From Deltaproteobacteria bacterium (GTDB lineage Bacteria > Myxococcota > Kuafuiibacteriia > Kuafuiibacteriales > Kuafuiibacteriaceae), in the NCBI GenBank assembly GCA_040218735.1, contig JAVJQW010000058.1:82525-146524 (forward strand): 64,000 bases of DNA, given 5' to 3'. Position 1 is the first letter of the stretch; each line of letters begins with the position of its first letter. The position numbers were made by a program, and so were the translations under genes. The notes below the pieces were generated by a model. That model had not been told where the DNA came from, ran no database searches, and saw nothing but the letters and a program-made list of their open reading frames with translations. Of the stretch, positions 2,527 through 21,370 are shown piece by piece.

Positions 2527-3131
2527 GACCGAACCTCGGCGACCTTGAACTCGCAGGCCCACACCTCGGGGTTGCGGTTCCACACGAGGAAGCGGTTCTT
2601 GCCGTAGATCTCGTTCCAGGCCTTGAGGAACACCGTGCGCGCGTGTTCGTCGCGCTCTGCTTCCAGCGTCCAGGGGTGGTCTGCGACGGTGTAGTCCACA
2701 TCGGGGACGTCGAATCCCTCGGCGATGATGTCGCTCGTCGTGATATCGCGGAGGCGCTGAAGCCGAACCGCGGTCACCTTGAGCGTGATTCGGGAGGCCG
2801 CGCGCGGCATGTGGATCGACGGTCGCCAGCCGAATCCGTTCTCGCGCCAGCACGCCCAGCACGACGACGTGTTCCCGGGTTTGCAGTCGCGGTTGAGGTG
2901 GATCGGATTCCTCGCGAAGGCGTCCGGGTCCGCGTACAGGTCCGCCGCGTACATGAACTCGGAGTGCGGGTAGAAGAAGTGCCCCGGCGCGAACGTCTCG
3001 CGCACCCAGAGTCGATCGCCTGGCTCGCCGAACAGTGTGCGGGGCTGCACGGGGCGGCGCGTCTGCGTCTTCTTGCCGGCGAGGATGGCGCGCACCATCT
3101 CCCCCGAGAAGAGGATCGGACGCTCCTTCAT
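2523..3131 (-). CDS. ASCH/PUA-like phage protein
   Basis: MKERPILFSGEMVRAILAGKKTQTRR, GDRLWVRET, WRPSIHMPRAASRITL, NPEVW signature. Confidence 0.85.
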   Translation of the reverse strand: MKERPILFSGEMVRAILAGKKTQTRRPVQPRTLFGEPGDRLWVRETFAPGHFFYPHSEFMYAADLYADPDAFARNPIHLNRDCKPGNTSSCWACWRENGFGWRPSIHMPRAASRITLKVTAVRLQRLRDITTSDIIAEGFDVPDVDYTVADHPWTLEAERDEHARTVFLKAWNEIYGKNRFLVWNRNPEVWACEFKVAEVRS

Positions 3132-4126
3132 GACCGCACGTCCAGCTGGCGATACGACTCGCCGCGGTGGAACTCTTCGAGCTCCTTCCGCTCCTTCGGA
3201 CCGATGTCGAGGCGACGGCAGAGGTCGTCGACCATGTCCTTGTACGAGGTGCGGCCGCTCAGGTTGCCCCAGCGCACCGACCCGCCTCCGGGCAGCTTGA
3301 AGCCCACGCCGTCGCCGATCGTCTCCTCGATGAGGTGGGCGACCTGGTCCTTCTTCGCCTCGAGGTCTTTGATCTGCCGGTTGAGCTCGGCGTGCCGCTC
3401 GGCGAGCTCGACCTGGCGATCGGTCGGCGTCTCGCTCAGCTTCCCCTTGCCCTCGGGGTGTCGACGTTCGAGCTCGCGACGCCAGCCGCGGGAGCCGTCG
3501 ATCGGCACGGGGAGGCCGCGCTCGATGTGGTCGCGGTACCACTTCTCGGCGCGCTCGAGCAGCGCGAGGCCGATGTCGAGGTTCCTCGGCACGCGGTAGC
3601 CGCGCAGCTCGTGACCGTTCACCGAGACGGCGACGTCGGCGACGTCGACCTCGGGGATCTCGGTGTTGCGCCAGAAGTCGCGGTCGAGGTGAATCGCGGC
3701 GAGCTGGGCCTGCACCTGCGCGGCGACGTTCGGCGCGACTTTGGAGGTGCCGTCCTCGCCCCACCCCTGCGCCTGCAGCGCGCGCCACTCGCGCGACTTC
3801 ACCTCGATCACGTGCGGCTCGGGGACGATGACGAAGTCGAGGGAGTAGCGAAGCCACGGCCGGCCGGGGACGGCGCCGGCGCGGCTCTCCGGCTTGTCGA
3901 GCAGCGCGGGATCGAGACCGAGGCGTCGCTTCGCGAAGACGGCCGCGGTGCCGTACTCGTGCTCGTTGCCGAGGTCGCCAGCGACCTGGAGCCACTCCGG
4001 CGCGTGCGGGCTGAAGCTGTGGACGATCCGGTTCCGCAGGTCGATCGGCGCCCGGTACTTGTCGAGGCCGATGATCGTCGGGATGTCCGAGCAGCCGACG
4101 AGGCTGAGGTCGAGGCTATGCGACAC
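3128..4126 (-). CDS. YqaJ-like (lambda-exonuclease family) recombination nuclease
   Basis: GCSDIPTIIGLDKY, GNEHE, SLDF, IEVK, QVQAQL motifs; GTG start with GGAGGTG RBS. Confidence 0.85.
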   Translation of the reverse strand: MSHSLDLSLVGCSDIPTIIGLDKYRAPIDLRNRIVHSFSPHAPEWLQVAGDLGNEHEYGTAAVFAKRRLGLDPALLDKPESRAGAVPGRPWLRYSLDFVIVPEPHVIEVKSREWRALQAQGWGEDGTSKVAPNVAAQVQAQLAAIHLDRDFWRNTEIPEVDVADVAVSVNGHELRGYRVPRNLDIGLALLERAEKWYRDHIERGLPVPIDGSRGWRRELERRHPEGKGKLSETPTDRQVELAERHAELNRQIKDLEAKKDQVAHLIEETIGDGVGFKLPGGGSVRWGNLSGRTSYKDMVDDLCRRLDIGPKERKELEEFHRGESYRQLDVRS

Positions 4127-5006
4127 GGCGCACCTCCGGCACTTGGTCCCAGGTGCGGCCGTCGAGCTCGCGGCCCGCGGCCTTCTTGCCCAACAGCATC
4201 GTGATGTCCGAATCGCCGGCCGGCGCCCAAGCACCCCACTGCTTGAACAGGAACGCCGTCCCCGCCTCGACGCACTGATCGCGAAGCGATCGCGCCCAGT
4301 CGGGATGCATGGGCCGCGCGCCGGGGCCGCTTTCGCCGCCGCAGATAACCCAATCGAGCACGGCGCCGTTCCACTCGTCGTCCTCGGGATCGACGTCGCA
4401 GTGCAGCGCGTTGTGGCCGTGCACCCCGACGGCCATCGGGCGCACCAGGTCGGTCAGGTTGATCGCCTCGAGCATCGGCTCGACGCTGACGAAGCGGCAC
4501 ACGGCGGGCGTGGCGAGGAGCAGCGGGATGCGTCGGGCCGCGTCGGCCTGCGTTTCGGCGGTGACGCCGAGCCAGACGTGCGGCCAGGGCTCGTCGAACT
4601 GCCCCATTGCTTCGAACCAAGGAAGCATTCGACGGAAGTTCTCCGGGCGCTTTGTGAGCAGCAGCCAGTCGAGGTGGGGCGTCGCGCTGATGAGCAGCCA
4701 CAGGCGCCGCCGATGCTCGATGAGGTCGTCGCGGTCCTCGAACACGTCCGCCATCGACGCGCAGAACACCCGCTCGCGAACTCCGGTGCGCTCCGCGCGC
4801 GCGTTCCACTTCAGCGGCTCGGCCCAACGCTTGTCGCCGAAGAAACGACGCGGCGCCTCGGGGCCCCAGTGCTCGTTTCCGATGCCGTGGACGCGCTTGT
4901 CGAACGTCTCCGCGTAGCAGTTGCGGCACGCCTCCGAGACGCGCGTGCACCCCCACCACGGGTTGAAGGTGTGATCGGTCCACTCGATCTTCGAGAGAGC
5001 GCCCAT
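4116..5006 (-). CDS. Phage Gp37/Gp68 (DUF5131) family protein
   Basis: SKIEWTDHTFNPWWGCTRVSEACRNCYAE, VFCASMADVF, LLTKRPEN, WVICGGESG, FKQWG. Confidence 0.95.
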   Translation of the reverse strand: MGALSKIEWTDHTFNPWWGCTRVSEACRNCYAETFDKRVHGIGNEHWGPEAPRRFFGDKRWAEPLKWNARAERTGVRERVFCASMADVFEDRDDLIEHRRRLWLLISATPHLDWLLLTKRPENFRRMLPWFEAMGQFDEPWPHVWLGVTAETQADAARRIPLLLATPAVCRFVSVEPMLEAINLTDLVRPMAVGVHGHNALHCDVDPEDDEWNGAVLDWVICGGESGPGARPMHPDWARSLRDQCVEAGTAFLFKQWGAWAPAGDSDITMLLGKKAAGRELDGRTWDQVPEVRRVA

Positions 5007-5230
5007 CAGTAGCCCCTTCCCTGCAGATAGAGCTTCGCGGCATCGAGGCACGAGCCGTACGTCTCCACGACGCGCGCGTCGGTCTCGTACCGCTTCACGA
5101 GCTCGGCGGTCTGCGTCGCCGTGCTGACCATCTGCGTGTTCGCGGTGATCTGCAGGCCGAAGGCCCGGACCAACTTCGCGAGCTCCGTCGTCGTCGTCGC
5201 CGCGTGCAGCTGCTCGAGGTAGTCCGTCAC
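5006..5230 (-). CDS. Phage hypothetical protein
   Basis: Coupled ORF with GGAGGTG RBS. Confidence 0.6.
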   Translation of the reverse strand: MTDYLEQLHAATTTTELAKLVRAFGLQITANTQMVSTATQTAELVKRYETDARVVETYGSCLDAAKLYLQGRGY

Positions 5231-5412
5231 CGGGCACCTCCGTCGAAGCCGCGGCGGGCGAACAGGGCCTTGCGAACGTCGCCGAGCGCGCGGACGTACT
5301 TGGACTGCGTCGGCTCCGCGGCGCGCGCGCGCTTCAGCGACGCTTCAAGCTGGCGAAGCTGCGCTTCGGGCCACCATCGGATGAGGTCGAACGTGATCGC
5401 TTCGAGGTTCAT
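5227..5412 (-). CDS. Phage hypothetical protein
   Basis: MNLEAITFDL...; overlaps at both ends. Confidence 0.55.
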   Translation of the reverse strand: MNLEAITFDLIRWWPEAQLRQLEASLKRARAAEPTQSKYVRALGDVRKALFARRGFDGGAR

Positions 5413-5681
5413 GCGTGCTCCCGCCAGCGGCGAACGCCCTGGCTCACTGCCTGTCGAGAGACGCCGACGACCTCGGCGATCCCGGTAAGGGTCCAGCCGC
5501 CGTCCGCGAGGGAAGCCCACGCAAAGTGACGAAGTCGGCTGGGGTACATCGGTTCGAGCGCAGCCGGGCGCGCCGCCGGCGGCACGACGAGGGCGCTTCG
5601 CTCGGCGCCGGACGCGAGCAGCCGGACGCGTCCGGTCGGACGCAGCTCGAGGACGGGATTCGGGAAGCGGTCAGCGGCCAC
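5409..5681 (-). CDS. Small helix-turn-helix DNA-binding protein
   Basis: C-terminal GWTLTGIAEVVGVSRQAVSQ HTH; GTG start with GGAGGTG RBS. Confidence 0.7.
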   Translation of the reverse strand: MAADRFPNPVLELRPTGRVRLLASGAERSALVVPPAARPAALEPMYPSRLRHFAWASLADGGWTLTGIAEVVGVSRQAVSQGVRRWREHA

Positions 5682-10180: not shown

Positions 10181-11806
10181 TCAGACCGTGGGGGCGATCT
10201 GCTCGACGATCCGGTCGAGCGCCGCCGCGACCTCGTGGTTGTCGATCTCCAGGGTCCGCGCCAGGAACAGGTGGAGCCGCGTCGCGTTCAGGTCGCCGAG
10301 GTCGTAGGCCTGCAGCGCCGCCTCGACGAACGGCCGCCCGCTCGTCGTGTTCGCGGAGACCTGTAGTGCCGGCCGCTCCGCGCCGGTCTTCTCGCGCTCC
10401 GGCGCGCGCATGTCTTCGGGGGCGCGTTTGTGTTCGTCGCCGCCGAGCATCTCCAGGTATGCCGCGCGCTTCGGGTCGTTCGACAGGACGCGGTAGGCCT
10501 CCGAGATGCGCCGATAGATCGCGTAGATCTTCTCCTTCAGGTCGCCGGAGCGAAGCAGGAAGAAGCGGTCCGGGTGGAACTCCAGCGACAGGTCGAAGTA
10601 CGCCGTCTGCAGCGCGTGGTCGGTCGCGTCCCGCTCGACGCCGAGGAGCTGGTAGTAGTCGACCTCCTCGAGCAGCCCGTAGACCTTGCGCACGCGCTTC
10701 GCCAGGCGCTTGCCGAGCTGGCTCTCGTCGAGGCCGCGGCGCTCCTTGCCCTCCGCGCGCCGTTTGATCGCGCTGATGCGTTGGTCGTCCGACGAGCTCG
10801 GCGTGCCCTCGCGCGGGATCTCTTGAATGAGGCTCGACTTCGAGATCTCCGGCGCCGAGTGCGACGACTGGATGCGCGGCTCCTCCAACGGATCCACCGC
10901 GCGCGTCGGGCCCGACGGATCGCGCTCGTCGGGGATCGATCGTGGCTGGAGCACCGGTGGCACCGGGGTCTCGGCGCGGTCCTGCGCGGCGAGCGCCTCG
11001 GCCGCCTCGCGCAGATCGTCGACCGGCGTGGCCGCACGCGACGAGGCTTCGAGGACGTGCGTTGCCGGCTGCCCGGCGTGTTCGAGCGTGCGCACCTCGA
11101 TGGGCATGCCGTCCGCGGTCGGCTGATCGTCGATCGCGGTGGGGCGCTCCACGCCGATGCCCGAGGTCATCTCGGCGACGCCGTGCCCGCGCGGGGTCGG
11201 GACGTCGTGGTCGCCGATCTGCGGATCCACGACCGCTGCTCCGCGATCCCCTTCGTAGAAGGGGTTCTGGTAGCTGACGACGGTGTCCATGTCCGGCTCG
11301 TTCGACGACGAGCGGGGCGGCGGACCCGCCGTGGGGATCGGGACGGGCGTGAGCGGTGCGCCGAGCACGTCCGTCGGATCCGAGAGCCCGGGCTCCGACA
11401 GCGCACGCGGGATGACGGGCGGCGGCGCCGGCCGGCCGTTCGCGAGCAGCGGCGCGATCGTCGACAGCACCCGCGCGCGCTCGAAGGGGACCCGCAGCAT
11501 GGCGTCGGCGCCGACGGAGGAGGCCCACTCCGGCGCGCGGTGCGACGACTCGTTCACCATCATCACGATCGGCGTGTCCTCGCCGCGCGTCTGCTGACGG
11601 ATGAGCTGGCAGAGGATCGTCCCGTCGAGGCGCTTCACGTGCGCGTACAACATGACGAGGTCCGGCTTGACCTCGTTGTAGCGGTCGAAGCCGTCCTCGC
11701 CGTCCATGGCGTAGACGAGGTGGTAGTCGGTGGACGAGAAGAAGCGATTCAGGAGCGTCCGGTGCTCCGGATCGTCGATGATGATGAGGACGACGCTGGA
11801 CGGCAC
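10181..11806 (-). CDS. Receiver-like domain + Pro-rich linker + DnaJ domain protein
   Basis: IIDDPEHR...DGEDG...PDLV receiver fold; DYYQLLGV...FHPDR...ISEAYRVLS J-domain. Confidence 0.88.
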   Translation of the reverse strand: MPSSVVLIIIDDPEHRTLLNRFFSSTDYHLVYAMDGEDGFDRYNEVKPDLVMLYAHVKRLDGTILCQLIRQQTRGEDTPIVMMVNESSHRAPEWASSVGADAMLRVPFERARVLSTIAPLLANGRPAPPPVIPRALSEPGLSDPTDVLGAPLTPVPIPTAGPPPRSSSNEPDMDTVVSYQNPFYEGDRGAAVVDPQIGDHDVPTPRGHGVAEMTSGIGVERPTAIDDQPTADGMPIEVRTLEHAGQPATHVLEASSRAATPVDDLREAAEALAAQDRAETPVPPVLQPRSIPDERDPSGPTRAVDPLEEPRIQSSHSAPEISKSSLIQEIPREGTPSSSDDQRISAIKRRAEGKERRGLDESQLGKRLAKRVRKVYGLLEEVDYYQLLGVERDATDHALQTAYFDLSLEFHPDRFFLLRSGDLKEKIYAIYRRISEAYRVLSNDPKRAAYLEMLGGDEHKRAPEDMRAPEREKTGAERPALQVSANTTSGRPFVEAALQAYDLGDLNATRLHLFLARTLEIDNHEVAAALDRIVEQIAPTV

Positions 11807-11833
11807 TCGGACGCTCGAAGGTCAGTGGCCGTG

Positions 11834-12281: not shown

Positions 12282-13595
12282 CTACAAGAGATTGGCGGCC
12301 AGCTCGGCCAGCTCGGAGCGCTCGCCCTTGAACATCGTCACGTGCCCCGCGATGCGCTCGGCGCGGAATCGGTTCACGACGTGAACAAGACCGTTGTTGG
12401 TCGCGTCCATATAGGGATTGTCGATTTGGTAGGGGTCGCCGGTGAGCACGATCTTCGTGCCCTCGCCGGCGCGTGACACGATGGTCTTGACCTCGTGCGG
12501 CGTGAGGTTCTGCGCCTCGTCGACCACCATGAACTGCGCCGGGATCGACCGGCCGCGAATGTAGGTGAGCGGCTCGATCTGCAGGATGCCGAGGTCGATG
12601 AGCTCGCGGTACGAGCGCCCGCCCTTCTTTTCGTCGTTCGACAGCCCCATGAGGAACTCGACGTTGTCGAAGATCGGCTGCATCCACGGGGACAGCTTCT
12701 CCTCCACCGTCCCGGGCAGGTAGCCGAGGTCACGACCGAGCGGGAAGATCGGACGCGACACGAGGACGCGCTGGTAGATGCCTTCCTCGGTCGCCTTGTG
12801 CATGCCGGCCGCGATCGCGAGGAGCGTCTTGCCGGTGCCCGCCTTGCCGACGAGCGTGACGAGCTTGATGGAGTCGTCCATCAGCAGGTCCACCGCGAAC
12901 GACTGCTCCTTGTTGCGCGGACGCACGCCCCACACGCCGTCCTTGAGGCGCGTGATCGGCACGACGCGCTCCAGCTCGAGCGACACCTTCCCGAGCGCGG
13001 AGTGGCTCGGGTTCGCGGCGTCCTTCAGGTGCACGAACTCGTTGGGCGCGTGGTACGGGTCGGGCAGGTCGAGGTAGCCCTGGCTGTAGAACTGGTCGAC
13101 GTCCTCGCCCGAGACCTCCATCTCCGCGACCCCGGTGTACAGCTCGGTGATCTCGACGCGGTCGTGGTCGTAGTCCTCGGCCTCGAGGCCCAGGGCGTCC
13201 GCGCGGATGCGCAGGTTGACGTCCTTCGTGACCAGGATGCACGGCGCCTCCGGGTCCTTCTCTTTGACGTCGAGCGCGGTCGCGAGGATGCGGTTGTCGA
13301 CGGCGTGCTCGGCCTGCGCGATCTCCGCGGGGAGCTGACGCGCCGAGAACGCGACGTAGAGCTTGCCTCCGCTCGGGAGCTCGACACCGCCGGAGAGGCC
13401 GTCCGTACCGCGCAGATCGTCGAGGCTCCGGCTGACCTCACGGGCGGATCGGCCGAGCTCGTTGAGGTCGCGCTTGAACCGGTCGATCTCCTCGATCACA
13501 TAGATCGGGATGACGACGGTGTTGTCCTCGAAGGCGAAGATCGCGCTCGGATCGTGAAGCAGGACGTTGGTGTCGAGGATGAAGTTCTTCTTCAA
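12282..13595 (-). CDS. phoH: PhoH2-type PIN-PhoH ATPase
   Basis: ILDTNVLLHD PIN motif; GKAGTGKT; LGYLPG; YIRGRS; DEAQN; GDPYQID. Confidence 0.95.
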   Translation of the reverse strand: MKKNFILDTNVLLHDPSAIFAFEDNTVVIPIYVIEEIDRFKRDLNELGRSAREVSRSLDDLRGTDGLSGGVELPSGGKLYVAFSARQLPAEIAQAEHAVDNRILATALDVKEKDPEAPCILVTKDVNLRIRADALGLEAEDYDHDRVEITELYTGVAEMEVSGEDVDQFYSQGYLDLPDPYHAPNEFVHLKDAANPSHSALGKVSLELERVVPITRLKDGVWGVRPRNKEQSFAVDLLMDDSIKLVTLVGKAGTGKTLLAIAAGMHKATEEGIYQRVLVSRPIFPLGRDLGYLPGTVEEKLSPWMQPIFDNVEFLMGLSNDEKKGGRSYRELIDLGILQIEPLTYIRGRSIPAQFMVVDEAQNLTPHEVKTIVSRAGEGTKIVLTGDPYQIDNPYMDATNNGLVHVVNRFRAERIAGHVTMFKGERSELAELAANLL

Positions 13596-13680
13596 CGAGA
13601 AACCCGGGGTCCTCGGTGGGGACCCGGGCCCGTATAGCCGCGCCTAGGGTCTTTGACAACGGGCCCTGGGGCCGCGGGCG

Positions 13681-15263: not shown

Positions 15264-17171
15264 TCAGGGCCCGCGGAGGAGTCGCCGGAGATCGTCCGGC
15301 CAGGGCGCTTCGAACACGCGGCCGTCGGGGAGCACGAGGCGCCGCGCGTGAAGCGCGAGGCGCCCGGCCTCCGCCCCCCCGTAGGTCGTGTCCCCGAGGA
15401 TCGGGAGTCCGAGGTGCGCGAGGTGCACGCGCACTTGGTGCCGCCGCCCGAAGCGCGTGGTGACCCAGACCTGGCCGATCGCTCGCCGCACGGAACGCCG
15501 GGACGCACCGACGGTCGTCACGTCTCCGAGGGCGCCGGTCGCCGGGGATTCGTTCGTCGTGGCGTCGACGCTGCTCGGCGGTGCTGCGCCCGTGCTTTTG
15601 TCGTTCGTCGTGTCGCGGTTGCTCGTCGTCGCGTCGCGGTTGCTCGCCGTCGCGTCGCGGTCGCTCGGCGGTGCTGCGCCGGCGCTGTTGTCGTTCGTGG
15701 TCGCGTCGCGGTCACTCGCCGTCGCGTCGCGAGCGCTTGGCGGTGCTGCGCGCGTGCTGTTGTCGTTCGTCGTCGCGTCGCGGTTGCTCGCCGTCGCGTC
15801 GCGGTCGCTCGGCGGTGCTGCGCCGGCGCTGTTGTCGTTCGTGGTCGCGTCGCGGTTGCTCGCCGTCGCCTCGCGAGCGCTCGGCGATGCTGCGGGCGTG
15901 CTGTTGTCGTTCGTCGTCGCGTCGCGGTCGCTCGCAGTCGCGTCGCGAGCGCTTGGCGGTGCTGCGCCCGTGCTGCTGTCGTTCGTCGTCGGGTCGCGGT
16001 CGCTCGCCGTCGCGTCGAGGCCGGTTCGCGATGCTGCGCCCGTGCTGTTGTCGTTCGTCGTCGCGTCGCGGTCGCTCGCCGTCGCGTCGAGGCCGGTTCG
16101 CGATGCTGCGCCCGTGCTGTTGTCGTTCGTCGTCGCGTCGCGGTCGCTCGCGGTCGCGTCGCGAGCGCTCGGCGGTGTTGCGCGCGTGCTGTTGTCGTTC
16201 GTCGTCGCGTCGCGGTCGCTCGCCGTCGCCTCGCGAGCGCTCGGCGATGCTGCGCGCGTGCTGTTGTCGTTCGTCGTCGCGTCGCGGTCGCTCGCGAGGC
16301 CGCTGGCCGGTGCTCTGCTCGCGCTCTTGTCAGGCGTCGTCGCGTCGTCGGTGGCCGCCGGAGCGCCGTACGCCGGCTTAGCGTCTCCGTGGGCCACTCC
16401 GCGTGGGCCGGCTGCCGTTTCGTAGCCGCTCGGCGGTGTTATCCTCGCGCGCGTCCCCTCGTCGTCGGGCGCGCTTCGCGTGGCGCCCTCGGCGGCGCGC
16501 TCCACGTAGGAGCGCGCGGGCAGGGCGTCGGGGCCGTCGCCGACGCGCACCCGGGGGCCGGCGTTGACGATGCCTGCTTCGACGGTCACCGCGCCGTTCG
16601 CGAAGACGGCGTCCAGGTCGCCGTCGACGATCGCGTCGTAGACCTTCTCGACGCGGTGCGCCCGGAACGCTTCGCGCAGCTCGGCGCGCGCGCGCTTGGT
16701 CTTGGCGAACAGGACGACGCCGGACGTCGCCGTGTCGAGGCGGTGCACCGCGCCGCCCTCGAGCGGGGGCCCGGCGTCGGCGATCGCGGGGCACAGCGCG
16801 ACGGCCGCGTTCAGGAGCGTGCCGATCTCGTCCGGGTGCACGGGCGTCGTCGGGAGGCCGCTCGGCTTGGCGAGGACGAGCAGCGCGTCGTCTTCGTGGA
16901 GCCGGACGACCCGACCCAGCAGGGACGGATCGGGACGCACCCTCGCCTGGGCTCGGAGCGTCCGCCGGACCACCACCACGGCGCCCGCCTCCGCGCGATC
17001 CCCCGCGGCGACGCGCCGCCCGCCGACCTGGATCTCGTTGGCCTTGAGGCCCGCGCGGATCTCACGCACGGACGCGTCATGCCCGCGCGCGACGAGCGCT
17101 GCGCGGATCGCGCGGTCCCAGCGGTCGTCGGCGTGTTCGGCGTCGAGGGTGAATTCGATCGCGTCGGCCAT
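15264..17171 (-). CDS. RluA/RluD-family pseudouridine synthase with a large internal repeat insertion
   Basis: S4-like N-terminus, KPSGL, VHRLDTATSG, GRRHQVRVHL, PILGDTTYG, LALHA. Confidence 0.92.
   Translation of the reverse strand: MADAIEFTLDAEHADDRWDRAIRAALVARGHDASVREIRAGLKANEIQVGGRRVAAGDRAEAGAVVVVRRTLRAQARVRPDPSLLGRVVRLHEDDALLVLAKPSGLPTTPVHPDEIGTLLNAAVALCPAIADAGPPLEGGAVHRLDTATSGVVLFAKTKRARAELREAFRAHRVEKVYDAIVDGDLDAVFANGAVTVEAGIVNAGPRVRVGDGPDALPARSYVERAAEGATRSAPDDEGTRARITPPSGYETAAGPRGVAHGDAKPAYGAPAATDDATTPDKSASRAPASGLASDRDATTNDNSTRAASPSAREATASDRDATTNDNSTRATPPSARDATASDRDATTNDNSTGAASRTGLDATASDRDATTNDNSTGAASRTGLDATASDRDPTTNDSSTGAAPPSARDATASDRDATTNDNSTPAASPSAREATASNRDATTNDNSAGAAPPSDRDATASNRDATTNDNSTRAAPPSARDATASDRDATTNDNSAGAAPPSDRDATASNRDATTSNRDTTNDKSTGAAPPSSVDATTNESPATGALGDVTTVGASRRSVRRAIGQVWVTTRFGRRHQVRVHLAHLGLPILGDTTYGGAEAGRLALHARRLVLPDGRVFEAPWPDDLRRLLRGP
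15545..16296. repeat. 72-bp coding tandem repeat (9 full copies plus degenerate ones)
   Basis: CTGTTGTCGTTCGT-like anchor every 72 bp from 15685 to 16261; unit ASDRDATTNDNSTxAxxxSARDAT. Confidence 0.95.
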
Positions 17172-17183
17172 GGGGCCCGCGGG

Positions 17184-17762
17184 TCAGCGACGCGGCTTCG
17201 GGCCGGGTCGCCGGGGAGCCGAGCGTGAGGGCCTCGGCGCGCCGCGTGACGGGCGACGCGGCCCGGGGCCGCGCGAGCCGGGTTGGGGGCGCGGGCTGTT
17301 CCGCGGCGGCGTCTGCTGCGCACGGGGCGGCGCACCTCCGCCGGTCGTCTTGCGGGGCGCGGCCGTCAGCGGACCGCCACCGTGCGGGACCGGCTTGCCG
17401 TCGATGTCCATCTTCGGCTCGATGCCCCGCACCGCCTCCGGGGTGAGCACGTACCGCTTCGACGGCCGCCCGGCGCGCGCCATGCTGAACGCGATGATCC
17501 GGCCGATGGTCTGGACGTCGATCGAGTCGACCTCCGTACCCCACCGGTCCTGCGCGATCTCCCAGAGCGTCTTGCCCAGAACCTGACAGAACCAGGGGCC
17601 ACCGACCCGCCGTTTGATGAGGAAAGTGGTGAGCTCTTCCTGGGTGAGGGCGCCGTCCCTGTCGGCGTCGAATGGCCTGAGCATCTCGGTGATCTCTTCC
17701 GCCGAGAGCACCTGTCCGTTCGCCAGGCGGCGAAGTTTGATGGGTAGGTCTAGGCCGGGCAC
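17184..17762 (-). CDS. EF-hand protein with Arg/Pro/Gly-rich C-terminal tail
   Basis: FDADRDGALTQEE canonical EF-hand loop; tail PGSRGPGPRRPSRGAPRPSRS. Confidence 0.75.
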   Translation of the reverse strand: MPGLDLPIKLRRLANGQVLSAEEITEMLRPFDADRDGALTQEELTTFLIKRRVGGPWFCQVLGKTLWEIAQDRWGTEVDSIDVQTIGRIIAFSMARAGRPSKRYVLTPEAVRGIEPKMDIDGKPVPHGGGPLTAAPRKTTGGGAPPRAQQTPPRNSPRPQPGSRGPGPRRPSRGAPRPSRSAPRRPGPKPRR

Positions 17763-17826: not shown

Positions 17827-18774
17827 TCATTCTGCGACATAAGCCAGCGTCCGGTCGCCCACGGTCAGGTCCACACGAAGGTGTCGCGGCTCGTCCTCGT
17901 CGCGGGCGAGGCGGAAGTGCAGGACGAGCTCTTCACCTTCCCGAACGGGCCGCGGCGCGAACGCGAAGTAGCTCTGGGACCAATGGGTCTCCGCGAAGTC
18001 GCTGGACGTGTCGAGCACCACACCCTCGGCGAGGGTCGCGACGAACGATCCGACGAAGCCGGAGAGCACACCGTCGCGCATCACCGTGTAGCGCACCGTA
18101 TCCTCGACGAAGGGATCGTCGGCGCTGGCGGTCGCCAGGTCGAGCGCGACGAGCGTCGCGGGGTCGGCGAGACGTGCCGCCGGCTCCACGCGGAGCTGCT
18201 GGACGCGGCCCTGCTCCAGCTCCTTGTCCTCGAGTGACGACATGTCGAGGCCGTGCACCGGTGTGCGCCAGAACCCGGGGCCGTCGTGGCCGTAGAGGAC
18301 GGGGTCGTCGACCGGCGCGAGCTGAAGCGCGACGCGGCTGGGGAGCATCTGCCCGCCCTCCGCGAGGTTGTTGTCGCGCGCGACGAGGACATCGTCGAGC
18401 ATCCCTTCGACGAAGGCGAGGTGCCCGAGCCACTCGCTGACGAGGACGTTGGCCTTCTCGGGCAGCTCGAGCTCGGCGGCCGGGCCCTGGAGCACCTTCA
18501 CGCGATCGGTCAGCCCGTTGGCCTTCACCAGGTTCGCGGCGGTCTTGGCGATGTCCGCCTGGTCGATGGCGTACACCTGCCGCGCGCCGGCCCGCGCGGC
18601 GAGCATGGCGAGGATGCCGGTGCCCGTGCCGACGTCGAGGACCACGTCTTCGGGCTTCACGACGGCGCGGATGGCCTTGGCGAACGCATCCGTCCGCCTC
18701 CGGTCCGCCACCATGCGACGCTGCAGCTCGAGATCGCCGTAGCGCGAGAAGTAGTACTCCACGTCCGCCGGCAT
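17827..18774 (-). CDS. Protein arginine N-methyltransferase-like (PRMT1/type I-like)
   Basis: YYFSRY, MVADRRRT, VLDVGTGTGIL, SEWLG...EGML double-E loop, VHGLDMS, THWSQ loop. Confidence 0.9.
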   Translation of the reverse strand: MPADVEYYFSRYGDLELQRRMVADRRRTDAFAKAIRAVVKPEDVVLDVGTGTGILAMLAARAGARQVYAIDQADIAKTAANLVKANGLTDRVKVLQGPAAELELPEKANVLVSEWLGHLAFVEGMLDDVLVARDNNLAEGGQMLPSRVALQLAPVDDPVLYGHDGPGFWRTPVHGLDMSSLEDKELEQGRVQQLRVEPAARLADPATLVALDLATASADDPFVEDTVRYTVMRDGVLSGFVGSFVATLAEGVVLDTSSDFAETHWSQSYFAFAPRPVREGEELVLHFRLARDEDEPRHLRVDLTVGDRTLAYVAE

Positions 18775-18817
18775 ACGTGTTGATCTCGCGGCGAGCAAAG
18801 ACTATTCGCGGACACGC

Positions 18818-20419
18818 ATGAAGCGCCTGGTGTTGGTCGGTGGACTGTCTTGCCTGATCGCGTGTGGAGCGTCGCCGTCGAGCAGCGATCCCGCGGCGCC
18901 GCCGGTGGCGACCAGCTCGGTGAGCGCGGCGCCCCCGCCCTCCCCCGAAGTGAACGCGGAGCCGGCGGCCGATCCGAAGACCGCGCACGTCCCGGTGATC
19001 GCGCTGTCCGACTTCCACGGTTGGCTGCTCCCGCTCGAGCCGAAGGGGTACCCGCGGTACTTCGGCGGCGTCGCGAACCTCGCCGGGATGCTCCAGCACA
19101 AGGAGAAGCTCGCGAAGGGTGACGCGATCATCCTCGACAACGGCGACATGTGGACGGGCCCGACGGAGTCCACGCTCCTCCGCGGCGAGTCGGTCATCCA
19201 GGCGTACAACGAGATCGGCTTCACCGCGGCGAACGTCGCGAACCACGAGTTCGACTTCGGACTGGAGATCCTCCGGGCGCGCGTGAGCGAGGCGAAGTTC
19301 CCGTTCCTCGGCGCGAACATTGTCAAGGCCGGCACCACCGAGTCGCCTGACTTCGTGAAGCCGTTCACGATCGTCGAACGCGACGGCGTGAAGGTGGGGG
19401 TGCTCGGGTTGAGCTACGTCGGGACCCCGAAGACGACGCTCGCGAAACACGTCAAGGACCTCGAGTTCAAGGGCTACAAGGAGACGCTGGAGGCGTTCGT
19501 GCCCAAGGTGCGCGCCGCCGGCGCGAACGCCGTCGTGGTGCTCTTCCACGACGACGCGTCGATCGCGAAGGGCGTCCTCGAGTCGATGCCCGACCTGAAG
19601 GTCGCCGCTGTCGTCGCCGGCCAGAACCACCGCAAGGAGCAGTACACCGTGCGCGGGATCCCGATCGTGAACCCGGGGCCGTTCGGTCGCAGCTACGTGC
19701 GTTTCGACCTCGCGATCGACCGCGGCTCCAAGCAGCTCACGGGCGTGAAGCACGAGATCGTCGACATCACCGGTGACGTCGGCGCGCCGCCCTATCCGCC
19801 GTCGCCGGCGCTCTTGGCGATCGCCGAGGCCGCGCGCCAGAAGGCGACGCGCGGGATCTCCGAGCGTGACCTCGGGCGCCTGTCGCAGCCGCTCCCGGTG
19901 GGGACGTTCGCGAGCTCGCCGCTCGGCAACTTCGTCGTCGACAGCTGGCTCACCGCCATCCCGGACGCCGACTTCGCGATGCTCAACCACGGCGCGCTCC
20001 GCCAGCCGCTCGGCAAGGGTGCCGTCACGGTGGGCGATCTGCTGAGCGTCATGCCCTTCGAGAACAACCTCTACGTCGTGACGCTGACCGGCGAGCAGCT
20101 CGCGTCGCAGCTCGCGATCGACGGCCCGATCGTCGGCGGCATGACGTGGAGCTACCGCGAGCGGAACGACCGACGCACCGTCGTCTCGATGATCGACCAG
20201 CGCGGCAAGAAGATCCGCCGCAACAAGAAGTACCGGATCGTCATCCTCGACTTCATGTACACGGGCGGCGATGGCTTTCAGTTCAAAGAGCTCGACACCG
20301 CGCCGATCGACAGCGGGCTGTCGTGGCGCGAGCCGGTGATGCGCACGCTCCGCACGGCCGAGGCCACGCGCCGCGAGGTGAAGGTTCGCACCGGCGCTCG
20401 CGCGCGACGCGTGCGCTGA
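18818..20419 (+). CDS. 5'-nucleotidase / metallophosphoesterase lipoprotein
   Basis: Lipobox LIAC; SDFHG, DNGD, ANHEFDFG, NHGALR, MPFEN, GGDGF. Confidence 0.92.
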   Translation: MKRLVLVGGLSCLIACGASPSSSDPAAPPVATSSVSAAPPPSPEVNAEPAADPKTAHVPVIALSDFHGWLLPLEPKGYPRYFGGVANLAGMLQHKEKLAKGDAIILDNGDMWTGPTESTLLRGESVIQAYNEIGFTAANVANHEFDFGLEILRARVSEAKFPFLGANIVKAGTTESPDFVKPFTIVERDGVKVGVLGLSYVGTPKTTLAKHVKDLEFKGYKETLEAFVPKVRAAGANAVVVLFHDDASIAKGVLESMPDLKVAAVVAGQNHRKEQYTVRGIPIVNPGPFGRSYVRFDLAIDRGSKQLTGVKHEIVDITGDVGAPPYPPSPALLAIAEAARQKATRGISERDLGRLSQPLPVGTFASSPLGNFVVDSWLTAIPDADFAMLNHGALRQPLGKGAVTVGDLLSVMPFENNLYVVTLTGEQLASQLAIDGPIVGGMTWSYRERNDRRTVVSMIDQRGKKIRRNKKYRIVILDFMYTGGDGFQFKELDTAPIDSGLSWREPVMRTLRTAEATRREVKVRTGARARRVR

Positions 20420-20583: not shown

Positions 20584-21246
20584 TCAGCAGCGCCGGTAGA
20601 CGCCGCAGACGATCCCGAGGATCGAGGTCGATCGGAAGTCCTTCTTGTGGACCACGATCGGCTCCATCGACGCGTTCTCGGGGACGAAGTGAATCGAGTC
20701 GCCCTTGGGGACGTACCGCTTCACCGTCGCTTCGCCGTCGATCATCGCGACGACGATGTCGTTCGTGCGCGCCTCGATCTGCTTGCGCACGAATATGTAG
20801 TCCCCATCGAGGATGCCGGCTTCGATCATCGAGTCGCCGGTCACGCGGAGCGCGAAGACCTTCGCGCCGCGTTGGTCGCCGAGGAAGAAGCTGTCGACCC
20901 GGACGGTCTGCTCGGCTTGCTCGTCCGCGAGGATCGGCGAGCCGGCGGCGACGCGGCCGAGCAGGGGAATCTCGATGGTGTCACTGTTCGCGGGGATCAG
21001 GGTCGACACCACATCGCTCTTGACTGGGCTCGGCATGTGGACCGGACGGAGGGCGCGCGACTTCAGGCCCTCCCGGACCAGGTAACCCTTGCGCTCGAGC
21101 GCCTTGAGGTGATCGTTCACCCCGTTCGTGGACTTGATCCCCATCTCCTCGCCGATCTCCCGGATCGTGGGCGGGTACCCCTGCTCCTGGATACGCTTCG
21201 TAATGAAGTCGAGGATTTGGCGCTGTCGCTCCGTCAGGCCCTGCAT
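20584..21246 (-). CDS. lexA: SOS repressor LexA
   Basis: [22 protein letters not shown] cleavage site, GDSM, EATVK. Confidence 0.97.
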
Positions 21247-21262
21247 CGCGCTCCGGACTCTA

Positions 21263-21279
21263 GCTGAACACCTGTGTAC
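21263..21279 (-). promoter_or_regulatory. Myxobacterial-type LexA box upstream of lexA
   Basis: Minus strand GTACACAGGTGTTCAGC matches the recalled M. xanthus consensus CTRHAMRYBYGTTCAGS at 15/17. Confidence 0.7.
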
Positions 21280-21370
21280 ACGCAACATTTGGACACCGAT
21301 TTTCGTTGCGCGCGCTGGGGCCGCCTTTTCCCGTTCTCATGACGCAGGTGGTCGTGCGTAAGATGGTGGC

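Follow-up and report, generated by a model that had tools for sequence, protein, structure and literature searches.

A 64,000-nucleotide stretch of a Myxococcota genome (the window; bases 82,525–146,524 of contig C45, in an assembly of 11.6 Mb in 70 contigs that is 96.5% complete) encodes on its minus strand a 315-residue protein that is strongly supported as a full-length PRMT-type (protein arginine methyltransferase) enzyme, with double-E loop, THW loop and beta-barrel. The gene is native, single-copy and vertically inherited in one Myxococcota family. By its placement in phylogenetic trees, the protein belongs to a bacterial clade that it shares with Planctomycetota and Verrucomicrobiota, and a eukaryotic derivation finds no support. 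Judged from its conserved residues and its context, its most likely activity is arginine methylation of cellular proteins, which we consider probable. The existence of bacterial PRMT homologues is in itself no discovery: they are already known in comparative genomics, in print since 2011/2012 and mirrored in JGI annotations, and the protein adds one more member to a bacterial branch of the PRMT superfamily that is known and large and, it seems, uncharacterised.

Gene, fold and family of the PRMT-type protein

The open reading frame (ORF) can be read from a TTG codon (17827..18798, 323 residues) or from an ATG codon (17827..18774, 315 residues), both on the minus strand. The 315-residue form exactly matches an already recorded public protein (P0002), and in an alignment of relatives their starts fall a few residues from the ATG at 18774. 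A first, sequence-only reading of this DNA had listed seven PRMT motifs in order. All seven were found in the ORF in the expected order, with coordinates checked by translation, and the C-terminal beta-barrel that it had also named is present. Besides the motifs placed below, the ORF contains ARDNNLAEGGQMLP.

17827..18774, minus strand: coding sequence of the PRMT-type methyltransferase, 315 residues plus stop; alternative TTG start at 18798
18739..18756, minus strand: YYFSRY, N-terminal helix motif of the YFxxY type
18691..18714, minus strand: MVADRRRT, with M21 in the same column as the Met of the eukaryotic 'EM'
18610..18642, minus strand: VLDVGTGTGIL, S-adenosylmethionine (SAM)-binding motif I, with D47 and G51
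18397..18438, minus strand: SEWLGHLAFVEGML, double-E loop (E114, E123)
inside 18199..18288, minus strand: FWRTPVHGLDMS motif
18199..18288, minus strand: predicted dimerisation arm, residues 163–192 (HDGPGFWRTPVHGLDMSSLEDKELEQGRVQ), from the two-copy prediction and the Pfam PRMT_C 'oligomerization subdomain'
17980..17988, minus strand: THW loop (T263, H264, W265)

The residues E114, E123, T263, H264, W265, M21 and D47/G49/G51/G53 are invariant in 15/15 members of the clade to which the protein belongs. Y12 is likewise invariant across this 15-sequence alignment, and the first two positions of the YFxxY-type motif vary (YL in Planctomycetota members). Across 144 representatives of the wider family, motif I retains G51 in all 144 and D47 in 142; position 114 is E in 133 and D in 11, E123 is E in 125, and the THW loop keeps H264 in 120 and W265 in 135. 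Motif I, the double-E loop (against SEWMG...E), the THW loop and the Met occupy columns shared with named eukaryotic proteins, namely PRMT3-like sequences from Iris, Tulasnella and Chlamydomonas and a PRMT6-like sequence from a spider. Directly ahead of M21, R19/R20 are invariant in the clade, and the aligned eukaryotic sequences have EE, RE, AT or RV at these positions. A Met, and not a Phe, at the product-specificity position marks type I PRMTs. The core features of that type are all found here: motif I, the double-E and THW loops, the YFxxY helix with Met rather than Phe, and the beta-barrel with its arm.

Searches of solved structures gave a uniform picture. With phmmer, the best match in the PDB was the PRMT3 core (1f3l, E = 5.1e-45, query 15–320 on chain 9–318), followed by PRMT6 (2.5e-43), PRMT2 (~4e-40), PRMT8 and PRMT1 (~1e-37) and CARM1 (~1e-34), and every one of the best 60 sequence matches is a protein arginine methyltransferase. 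Pfam PRMT_C matches residues 169–311 (E = 8.1e-15); in the NCBIfam scan of the protein, no model exceeded its cut-off. An AlphaFold2 model made from the 15-sequence alignment reached a mean predicted local distance difference test (pLDDT) value of 85.1 and a predicted template modelling score (pTM) of 0.81. When this model was compared with the PDB by Foldseek, PRMT3 was retrieved again (2fyt, E = 5.9e-35, template modelling score 0.88/0.89, 31% identity); ranks 1–50 hold PRMTs only, with PRMT6, PRMT2, PRMT1 and PRMT8 at E about 1e-33 to 7e-32. The initial claim of a full-length PRMT-type enzyme is borne out by these end-to-end matches, whose scores lie far outside what chance would give.

In the models, the PRMT fold is predicted to span the whole length of the protein and to form a head-to-tail dimer. 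The two-copy prediction gave a homodimer score of 0.75 against 0.00 for the best control, with contact agreement of at least 89% and partner pLDDT of at least 91. Of 30 proteins solved as pairs, 20 attained the mark used, as did 1 of 23 solved as single chains; the run used the alignment built in this analysis, and the positive result could stem from the predictor's memory of PRMT dimers already solved. In the predicted interface, the arm (residues 163–192) lies on residues 14–32, 52–61 and 78–86 of the other copy, an arm-to-Rossmann arrangement that we take to be the one seen in type I PRMT dimers.

Automatic annotation suggests a different identity, namely PrmA, the lysine methyltransferase of ribosomal protein L11. 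As had been foreseen from the sequence, six relatives among the 120 listed bear the NCBI name '50S ribosomal protein L11 methyltransferase' (in Myxococcota, 'Deltaproteobacteria' and Pirellulaceae), and the Pfam PrmA model does match the protein, at 5.4e-12. That match covers the Rossmann part only (residues 41–125; profile positions 153–236 of 296), and the prmA model TIGR00406 scores 36.4 and 35.1 bits, far under its cut-off of 183.15. A genuine PrmA is encoded elsewhere in the genome (contig C21, 403323–404012) and scores 183.5 bits, over the cut-off. The proposed comparison of the protein with PRMTs and PrmA by profile and structure thus came out on the PRMT side, with PRMTs only among the listed structure matches, and we see practically no chance that the gene is PrmA. 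The name 'L11 methyltransferase' on the relatives is wrong and is spreading through databases.

Inheritance, phylogeny and gene neighbourhood

The coding sequence has a GC content of 0.698 against 0.688 for the window, its GC content at third codon positions (GC3, 0.90) lies within the range of neighbouring genes, and the regional GC profile is ordinary, in agreement with the native codon usage noted at the outset. The source genome carries a single full-length copy of the gene. In the source family (f1), all 19 other sampled genomes have it, free of internal stops and within a conserved block. Because of this family-wide presence, the shared synteny and the matching GC, contamination, which the sequence-only reading had raised against itself, is excluded independently of coverage data, and so is recent acquisition.

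A word-indexed search found at least 120 relatives at 54–100% identity, mostly 311–315 residues long, and HMMER over cluster representatives returned 12,356 matches at E ≤ 1e-3 and 1,007 at E ≤ 1e-30, eukaryotes included. At the stricter threshold, a match is present in 33 of 301 Myxococcota genomes and 15 of 201 Planctomycetota genomes sampled, and Myxococcota families other than f1 are patchy (f9 5/115, f14 0/40, f8 0/21, f3 2/18, f21 3/4, f17 1/11). Near-full-length homologues occur in Myxococcota, Mariniblastus and other Planctomycetota, Pelagicoccus mobilis (Verrucomicrobiota), a TA06 bin, Desulfobacteraceae, a Rickettsiales bin, Anaerolineae, Terriglobia, Gemmatimonadales, the cyanobacterium Dapis and also Kaistia algarum. 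The last came from a cluster look-up of 20 representatives, in which an organism name was attached to this one and to a sequence of the spider Uloborus diversus. The rarity in bacteria implied by the first reading, and the novelty with it, are therefore not supported as put: the family is large in bacteria, five of the 120 listed relatives carry the JGI name 'type I protein arginine methyltransferase', and both bacterial PRMT homologues and a bacterial origin of the eukaryotic PRMTs are stated in passages of Aravind et al. (2012; PMC3417536).

Three trees agree on the position of the protein: a FastTree phylogeny (178 rows), a quick IQ-TREE run and a careful IQ-TREE run (78 rows, 317 columns, LG+C20+F+G4). 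Rows shorter than 270 residues were dropped from the 150 representatives before FastTree, and the careful tree is a hand-picked 78-row subset. The tips are mostly metagenomic proteins, the tree is unrooted with a poorly supported backbone between major clades, and its named eukaryotes are PRMT3-like and PRMT6-like only, with no named PRMT1, PRMT2, PRMT8 or CARM1. In the careful tree, the query falls in an 18-row clade (support 100/99) of Myxococcota, Planctomycetota, Verrucomicrobiota and unlabelled sequences. All six named eukaryotic sequences fall in a separate 21-row clade (100/99), and in each of the 200 bootstrap trees (100%) a branch sets them together to one side. Placement of the query within a eukaryotic PRMT subfamily was not observed among the PRMT3-like and PRMT6-like eukaryotes of this tree. 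Named bacteria are spread over many clades, and named eukaryotes are confined to one.

The basal member of the eukaryote-holding clade, and the only named bacterium there, is the cyanobacterial sequence L012 (Dapis sp.). This homologue is 367 residues long (3093–4196 of its locus) and has a class I/II aminotransferase upstream; about 600 bp downstream, a second, shorter ORF (4772–5524) has weak PRMT similarity, with 21% identity over 234 residues.

The phylogeny that had been called for thus separates the query from the named eukaryotes. The label 'eukaryote-like' remains apt for the full-length likeness to PRMT cores, and it is not supported in the sense of eukaryotic derivation, as the clade of the query is wholly bacterial. 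The idea of a gene recently acquired from a eukaryote, or of an assembly contaminated with eukaryotic DNA, draws support from the best solved matches, which are all eukaryotic, with no bacterial PRMT among the chains in the phmmer and Foldseek rows listed. Against the composition of the gene, a window that extends to base 146,524 of its contig, the common synteny in 19/19 family genomes and the tree placement, we regard such an origin as highly improbable.

The conserved block, found at 16 f1 loci, comprises a sigma-54 activator, a zinc-ribbon protein, lexA, (a 5'-nucleotidase), the PRMT gene, (an insert), an EF-hand-like protein, RluA and a TlpA-like protein. LexA is encoded within 6 kb of the PRMT gene at 14/16 of these loci and directly adjacent at 5/16; the 5'-nucleotidase lies between the two at 11/16, and RluA and the EF-hand-like gene are present at 12/16 and 9/16, respectively. 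None of the block neighbours was found at four PRMT loci outside f1. In the window, the members nearest to the PRMT gene are as follows.

20584..21288, minus strand: lexA (LexA_DNA_bind 4e-27, Peptidase_S24 1.7e-32), upstream of the PRMT gene and on the same strand
18818..20419, plus strand: 5'-nucleotidase-like lipoprotein (5_nucleotid_C 2.3e-24), divergent, between lexA and the PRMT gene
17184..17762, minus strand: 192-residue EF-hand-like protein with one loop (DADRDGALTQEE; EF-hand_8 27.1 bits, slightly short of the 28-bit cut-off), 64 nt past the PRMT stop
15264..17171, minus strand: RluA-type pseudouridine synthase (PseudoU_synth_2 1.3e-17), the gene that follows on this strand; it contains a repeat insert

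The 5'-nucleotidase-like protein begins with a lipoprotein-type signal (…LIAC), and only about 43 nt separate its start codon from that of the divergent PRMT gene, so that the PRMT promoter must overlap the coding region of this neighbour. The EF-hand-like protein has a basic Pro/Arg/Gly tail ending in RRPGPKPRR; its relatives at loci L001, L002 and L004 end in PRRAGPRPRR, PRRPGPRPRR and RRPKKPKSS, and the last 10 residues are conserved among family relatives (RRPGPKPRR, PRRAGPRPRR, PRRPGPRPRR). At L001 and L002, an opposite-strand gene separates the EF-hand-like gene from the PRMT gene.

With the LexA-box consensus that we presume for Myxococcus, the window has five matches at no more than two mismatches against 1.49 expected, and 3 of 100 shuffles reached five. 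One of them, GTACACAGGTGTTCAGC at 21263–21279 on the minus strand, just upstream of lexA, agrees with this presumed consensus at 15/17 positions, and a similar site precedes lexA in 5/14 family relatives. SOS control of the PRMT gene itself was considered and rejected: the box-like match at 18853–18869 is without a counterpart upstream of the PRMT gene in 16/16 relatives and is put down to chance. Co-transcription with lexA is possible in the relatives where lexA abuts the PRMT gene.

Other neighbours in the window include FtsB/DivIC, a sigma-54 activator and a Ser/Thr kinase. No gene for a non-ribosomal peptide synthetase (NRPS), polyketide synthase (PKS), dioxygenase or amine oxidase was found within ~10 kb on either side of the PRMT gene in the window, nor beside the clade members L003, L005, L006 and L008. 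Clade members in other phyla have neighbours unrelated to the source block and to each other. With PADLOC, a search for defence systems gave a generic match to the Rossmann part only (residues 28–126, mad2, 8.3e-13), and three neighbours had no match; membership of a defence system was accordingly rejected. A search for PRMT domains fused into longer proteins, which is weak evidence on fusions, listed 37 proteins, none above 43% identity; those that carry a name are all from eukaryotes.

Some further features of the region were noted in passing. The RluA-type gene contains, in frame, a 72-bp tandem repeat (15623–16295; 9.3 copies, 90% matches, no indels) that encodes Asp/Thr/Ser/Asn-rich units of about 24 residues; they separate the N-terminal part of the enzyme from its C-terminal part, and relatives match these flanking parts only. 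Downstream of the block lie a PIN-PhoH fusion protein (12282–13643, minus strand) and a response-regulator receiver fused to a DnaJ domain (10181–11821, minus strand).

Proposed activity and competing explanations

We hypothesize that the gene product acts as a homodimeric, stand-alone PRMT-type methyltransferase that depends on SAM. In cellular proteins it would pass the methyl group to the guanidino nitrogen of arginines, and type I chemistry would yield monomethyl- and then asymmetric dimethylarginine (ADMA). Arginine is the expected acceptor because the double-E and THW residues are conserved, and ADMA the expected product because the Met and His positions, which mark type I enzymes in PRMT1 biochemistry, are both present. 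The targets would be proteins and not peptides because of the housekeeping gene context; this housekeeping and regulatory setting, in which biosynthetic genes are absent, argues for cellular protein targets over a natural product. Candidate targets would be the tails, basic or RG-rich, of RNA-associated proteins encoded by the source genome, and also the neighbouring EF-hand-like protein, whose tail carries RRPGPxPRR.

An ORF scan of the source genome revealed long, low-complexity tails rich in RG, RGG or DRGG on several proteins. The loci are C43:48888-51113, C55:3738-5030, C66:268803-270179, C35:48181-48741, C18:84756-87113 and C18:230409-232382. From their translations, two of the RG-tail proteins are smaller ones, and the others appear to be an RluB-like pseudouridine synthase, an FtsJ/RlmM-like methyltransferase, DnaX and a RIO-type kinase. 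They are plausible as candidate targets by analogy alone, and the (RG)4 count gives them no backing. This count, a crude and frame-blind DNA pattern, found 22 matches in the source genome against 11 for the control. The highest excess over control occurs in f14 and f17, families mostly without the PRMT gene, and most f1 genomes are near control; in f14, where 0/40 genomes have a PRMT gene, some exceed 1000 matches against controls of about 15–50. Among f14 and f17 genomes, several (G133, G229, G085, G206, G074) have hundreds to more than 1500 matches against 10–50 for the reversed control.

A number of observations weigh against arginine methylation of cellular proteins. Across the 301 Myxococcota genomes sampled (one of which, G195, is flagged as unpublished), RG-repeat coding showed no association with PRMT presence. 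Outside f1, no conserved partner was found, as the neighbours at the loci of Planctomycetota, Verrucomicrobiota and other Myxococcota are unrelated. The EF-hand-like neighbour was rejected as an obligate partner, having been found in one of five other PRMT-bearing genomes when searched with the source protein. The source genome gave no match to a histone fold (PF00808), Tudor (PF00567) or DDAH (PF19420). An arginine-methylation 'system', as first suggested, is therefore more than the data contain: the searches turned up neither a conserved partner nor a reader or eraser. Since the clade has Arg-Arg (R19/R20) where the eukaryotic enzymes are mostly acidic, its substrate preference may differ from RGG-type targets. 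Full-text literature searches returned no experimental or biochemical study of a bacterial PRMT, and in passages of PMC3417536 the bacterial relatives are termed 'peptide methylases', with the closest in secondary-metabolite operons.

The enzyme could be a peptide or natural-product methylase that tailors arginine or another residue of a ribosomal or non-ribosomal peptide. Passages of PMC3417536 place bacterial PRMT-type domains in antibiotic-like operons and within giant synthetases and describe the closest sister groups of eukaryotic PRMTs as being of this biosynthetic kind, and the sole named bacterium in the eukaryote-holding clade of our tree is a filamentous cyanobacterium (L012). The query clade, however, stands apart from the one formed by L012 and the eukaryotes. 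None of the four biosynthetic gene types looked for is near the gene or beside the clade members inspected, and a family-core gene within a housekeeping block is unlike typical accessory biosynthetic genes; we consider this explanation unlikely.

A PRMT fold might also have drifted towards another acceptor, such as a small guanidino compound, free arginine, a lysine or N-terminal amine, or RNA. The invariant R19/R20, which replace the residues of the aligned eukaryotic sequences, would fit such a shift, as would the lack of an RG-repeat association, the lack of a reader or eraser among the domains searched, and the RNA-modifying RluA among the neighbours. Yet both double-E glutamates, the THW residues and the Met, which hold the arginine guanidinium in PRMT structures, are invariant in the clade, and the whole beta-barrel and the dimer arm that frame the peptide groove are kept. 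We give a drifted acceptor a small chance, and arginine methylation of cellular proteins remains the reading we prefer. Beyond this activity, we propose tentatively, although as a serious possibility, that the clade, which is core to the Myxococcota family, represents a housekeeping ADMA writer acting on bacterial proteins, laterally shared with marine Planctomycetota and Verrucomicrobiota and perhaps co-transcribed with lexA in some relatives.

Arginine methylation is described as widespread or common yet understudied in bacterial proteomes in passages of two reports (bioRxiv 10.1101/2023.06.29.546327; PMC8466066), and as far as these passages go, few of its writers have been assigned. With all its catalytic residues intact, the present compact PRMT homologue, single-copy and family-wide, lends itself readily to expression and assay. 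The gene could reveal a bacterial arginine methylome, as well as PRMT roles that preceded the recruitment of these enzymes to eukaryotic chromatin and RNA-binding proteins. If the proposal of a housekeeping writer is true, a cellular role would for the first time be assigned to a bacterial PRMT, and the enzyme would stand as a living member of the bacterial radiation that gave rise to the eukaryotic PRMTs.

Comparison with known systems

The closest solved relative is the PRMT3 core (rat 1f3l, human 2fyt), which shares with the query an end-to-end alignment, motif I, the double-E and THW loops, the beta-barrel, the arm and the predicted head-to-tail dimer. A known target of PRMT3 is the ribosomal protein uS5/RPS2. 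The query differs from PRMT3 in lacking the N-terminal zinc-finger domain; the named eukaryotic PRMT3-like matches are 560–636 residues long and carry PF21137 and/or PF12756. The invariant Arg-Arg ahead of the conserved Met and the separate clade likewise set the query apart. PRMT6, PRMT2, PRMT1 and PRMT8 match across nearly the full length (2.5e-43 to ~1e-37), and compared with them the query is a minimal 315-residue core without N-terminal extensions; it also falls outside the clade of the named PRMT6-like sequence. With PrmA, the query shares the class I Rossmann SAM-binding fold and the automatic NCBI name on relatives, but it has no match to the N-terminal, substrate-binding domain of PrmA and scores far under the cut-off of that family.

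The bacterial PRMT-type 'peptide methylases' (a 2011 chapter by Aravind, Abhiman and Iyer, as cited in passages of PMC3417536) belong to the same superfamily and are, like the query, bacterial. According to these passages, eukaryotic PRMTs arose from within the bacterial radiation. Such an origin fits the present tree, because named bacteria occur in many clades and named eukaryotes in one. Whereas the 'peptide methylases' are described there in metabolite operons or fused to synthetases, the query clade is stand-alone and family-core and, in its Myxococcota family, lies in a housekeeping block.

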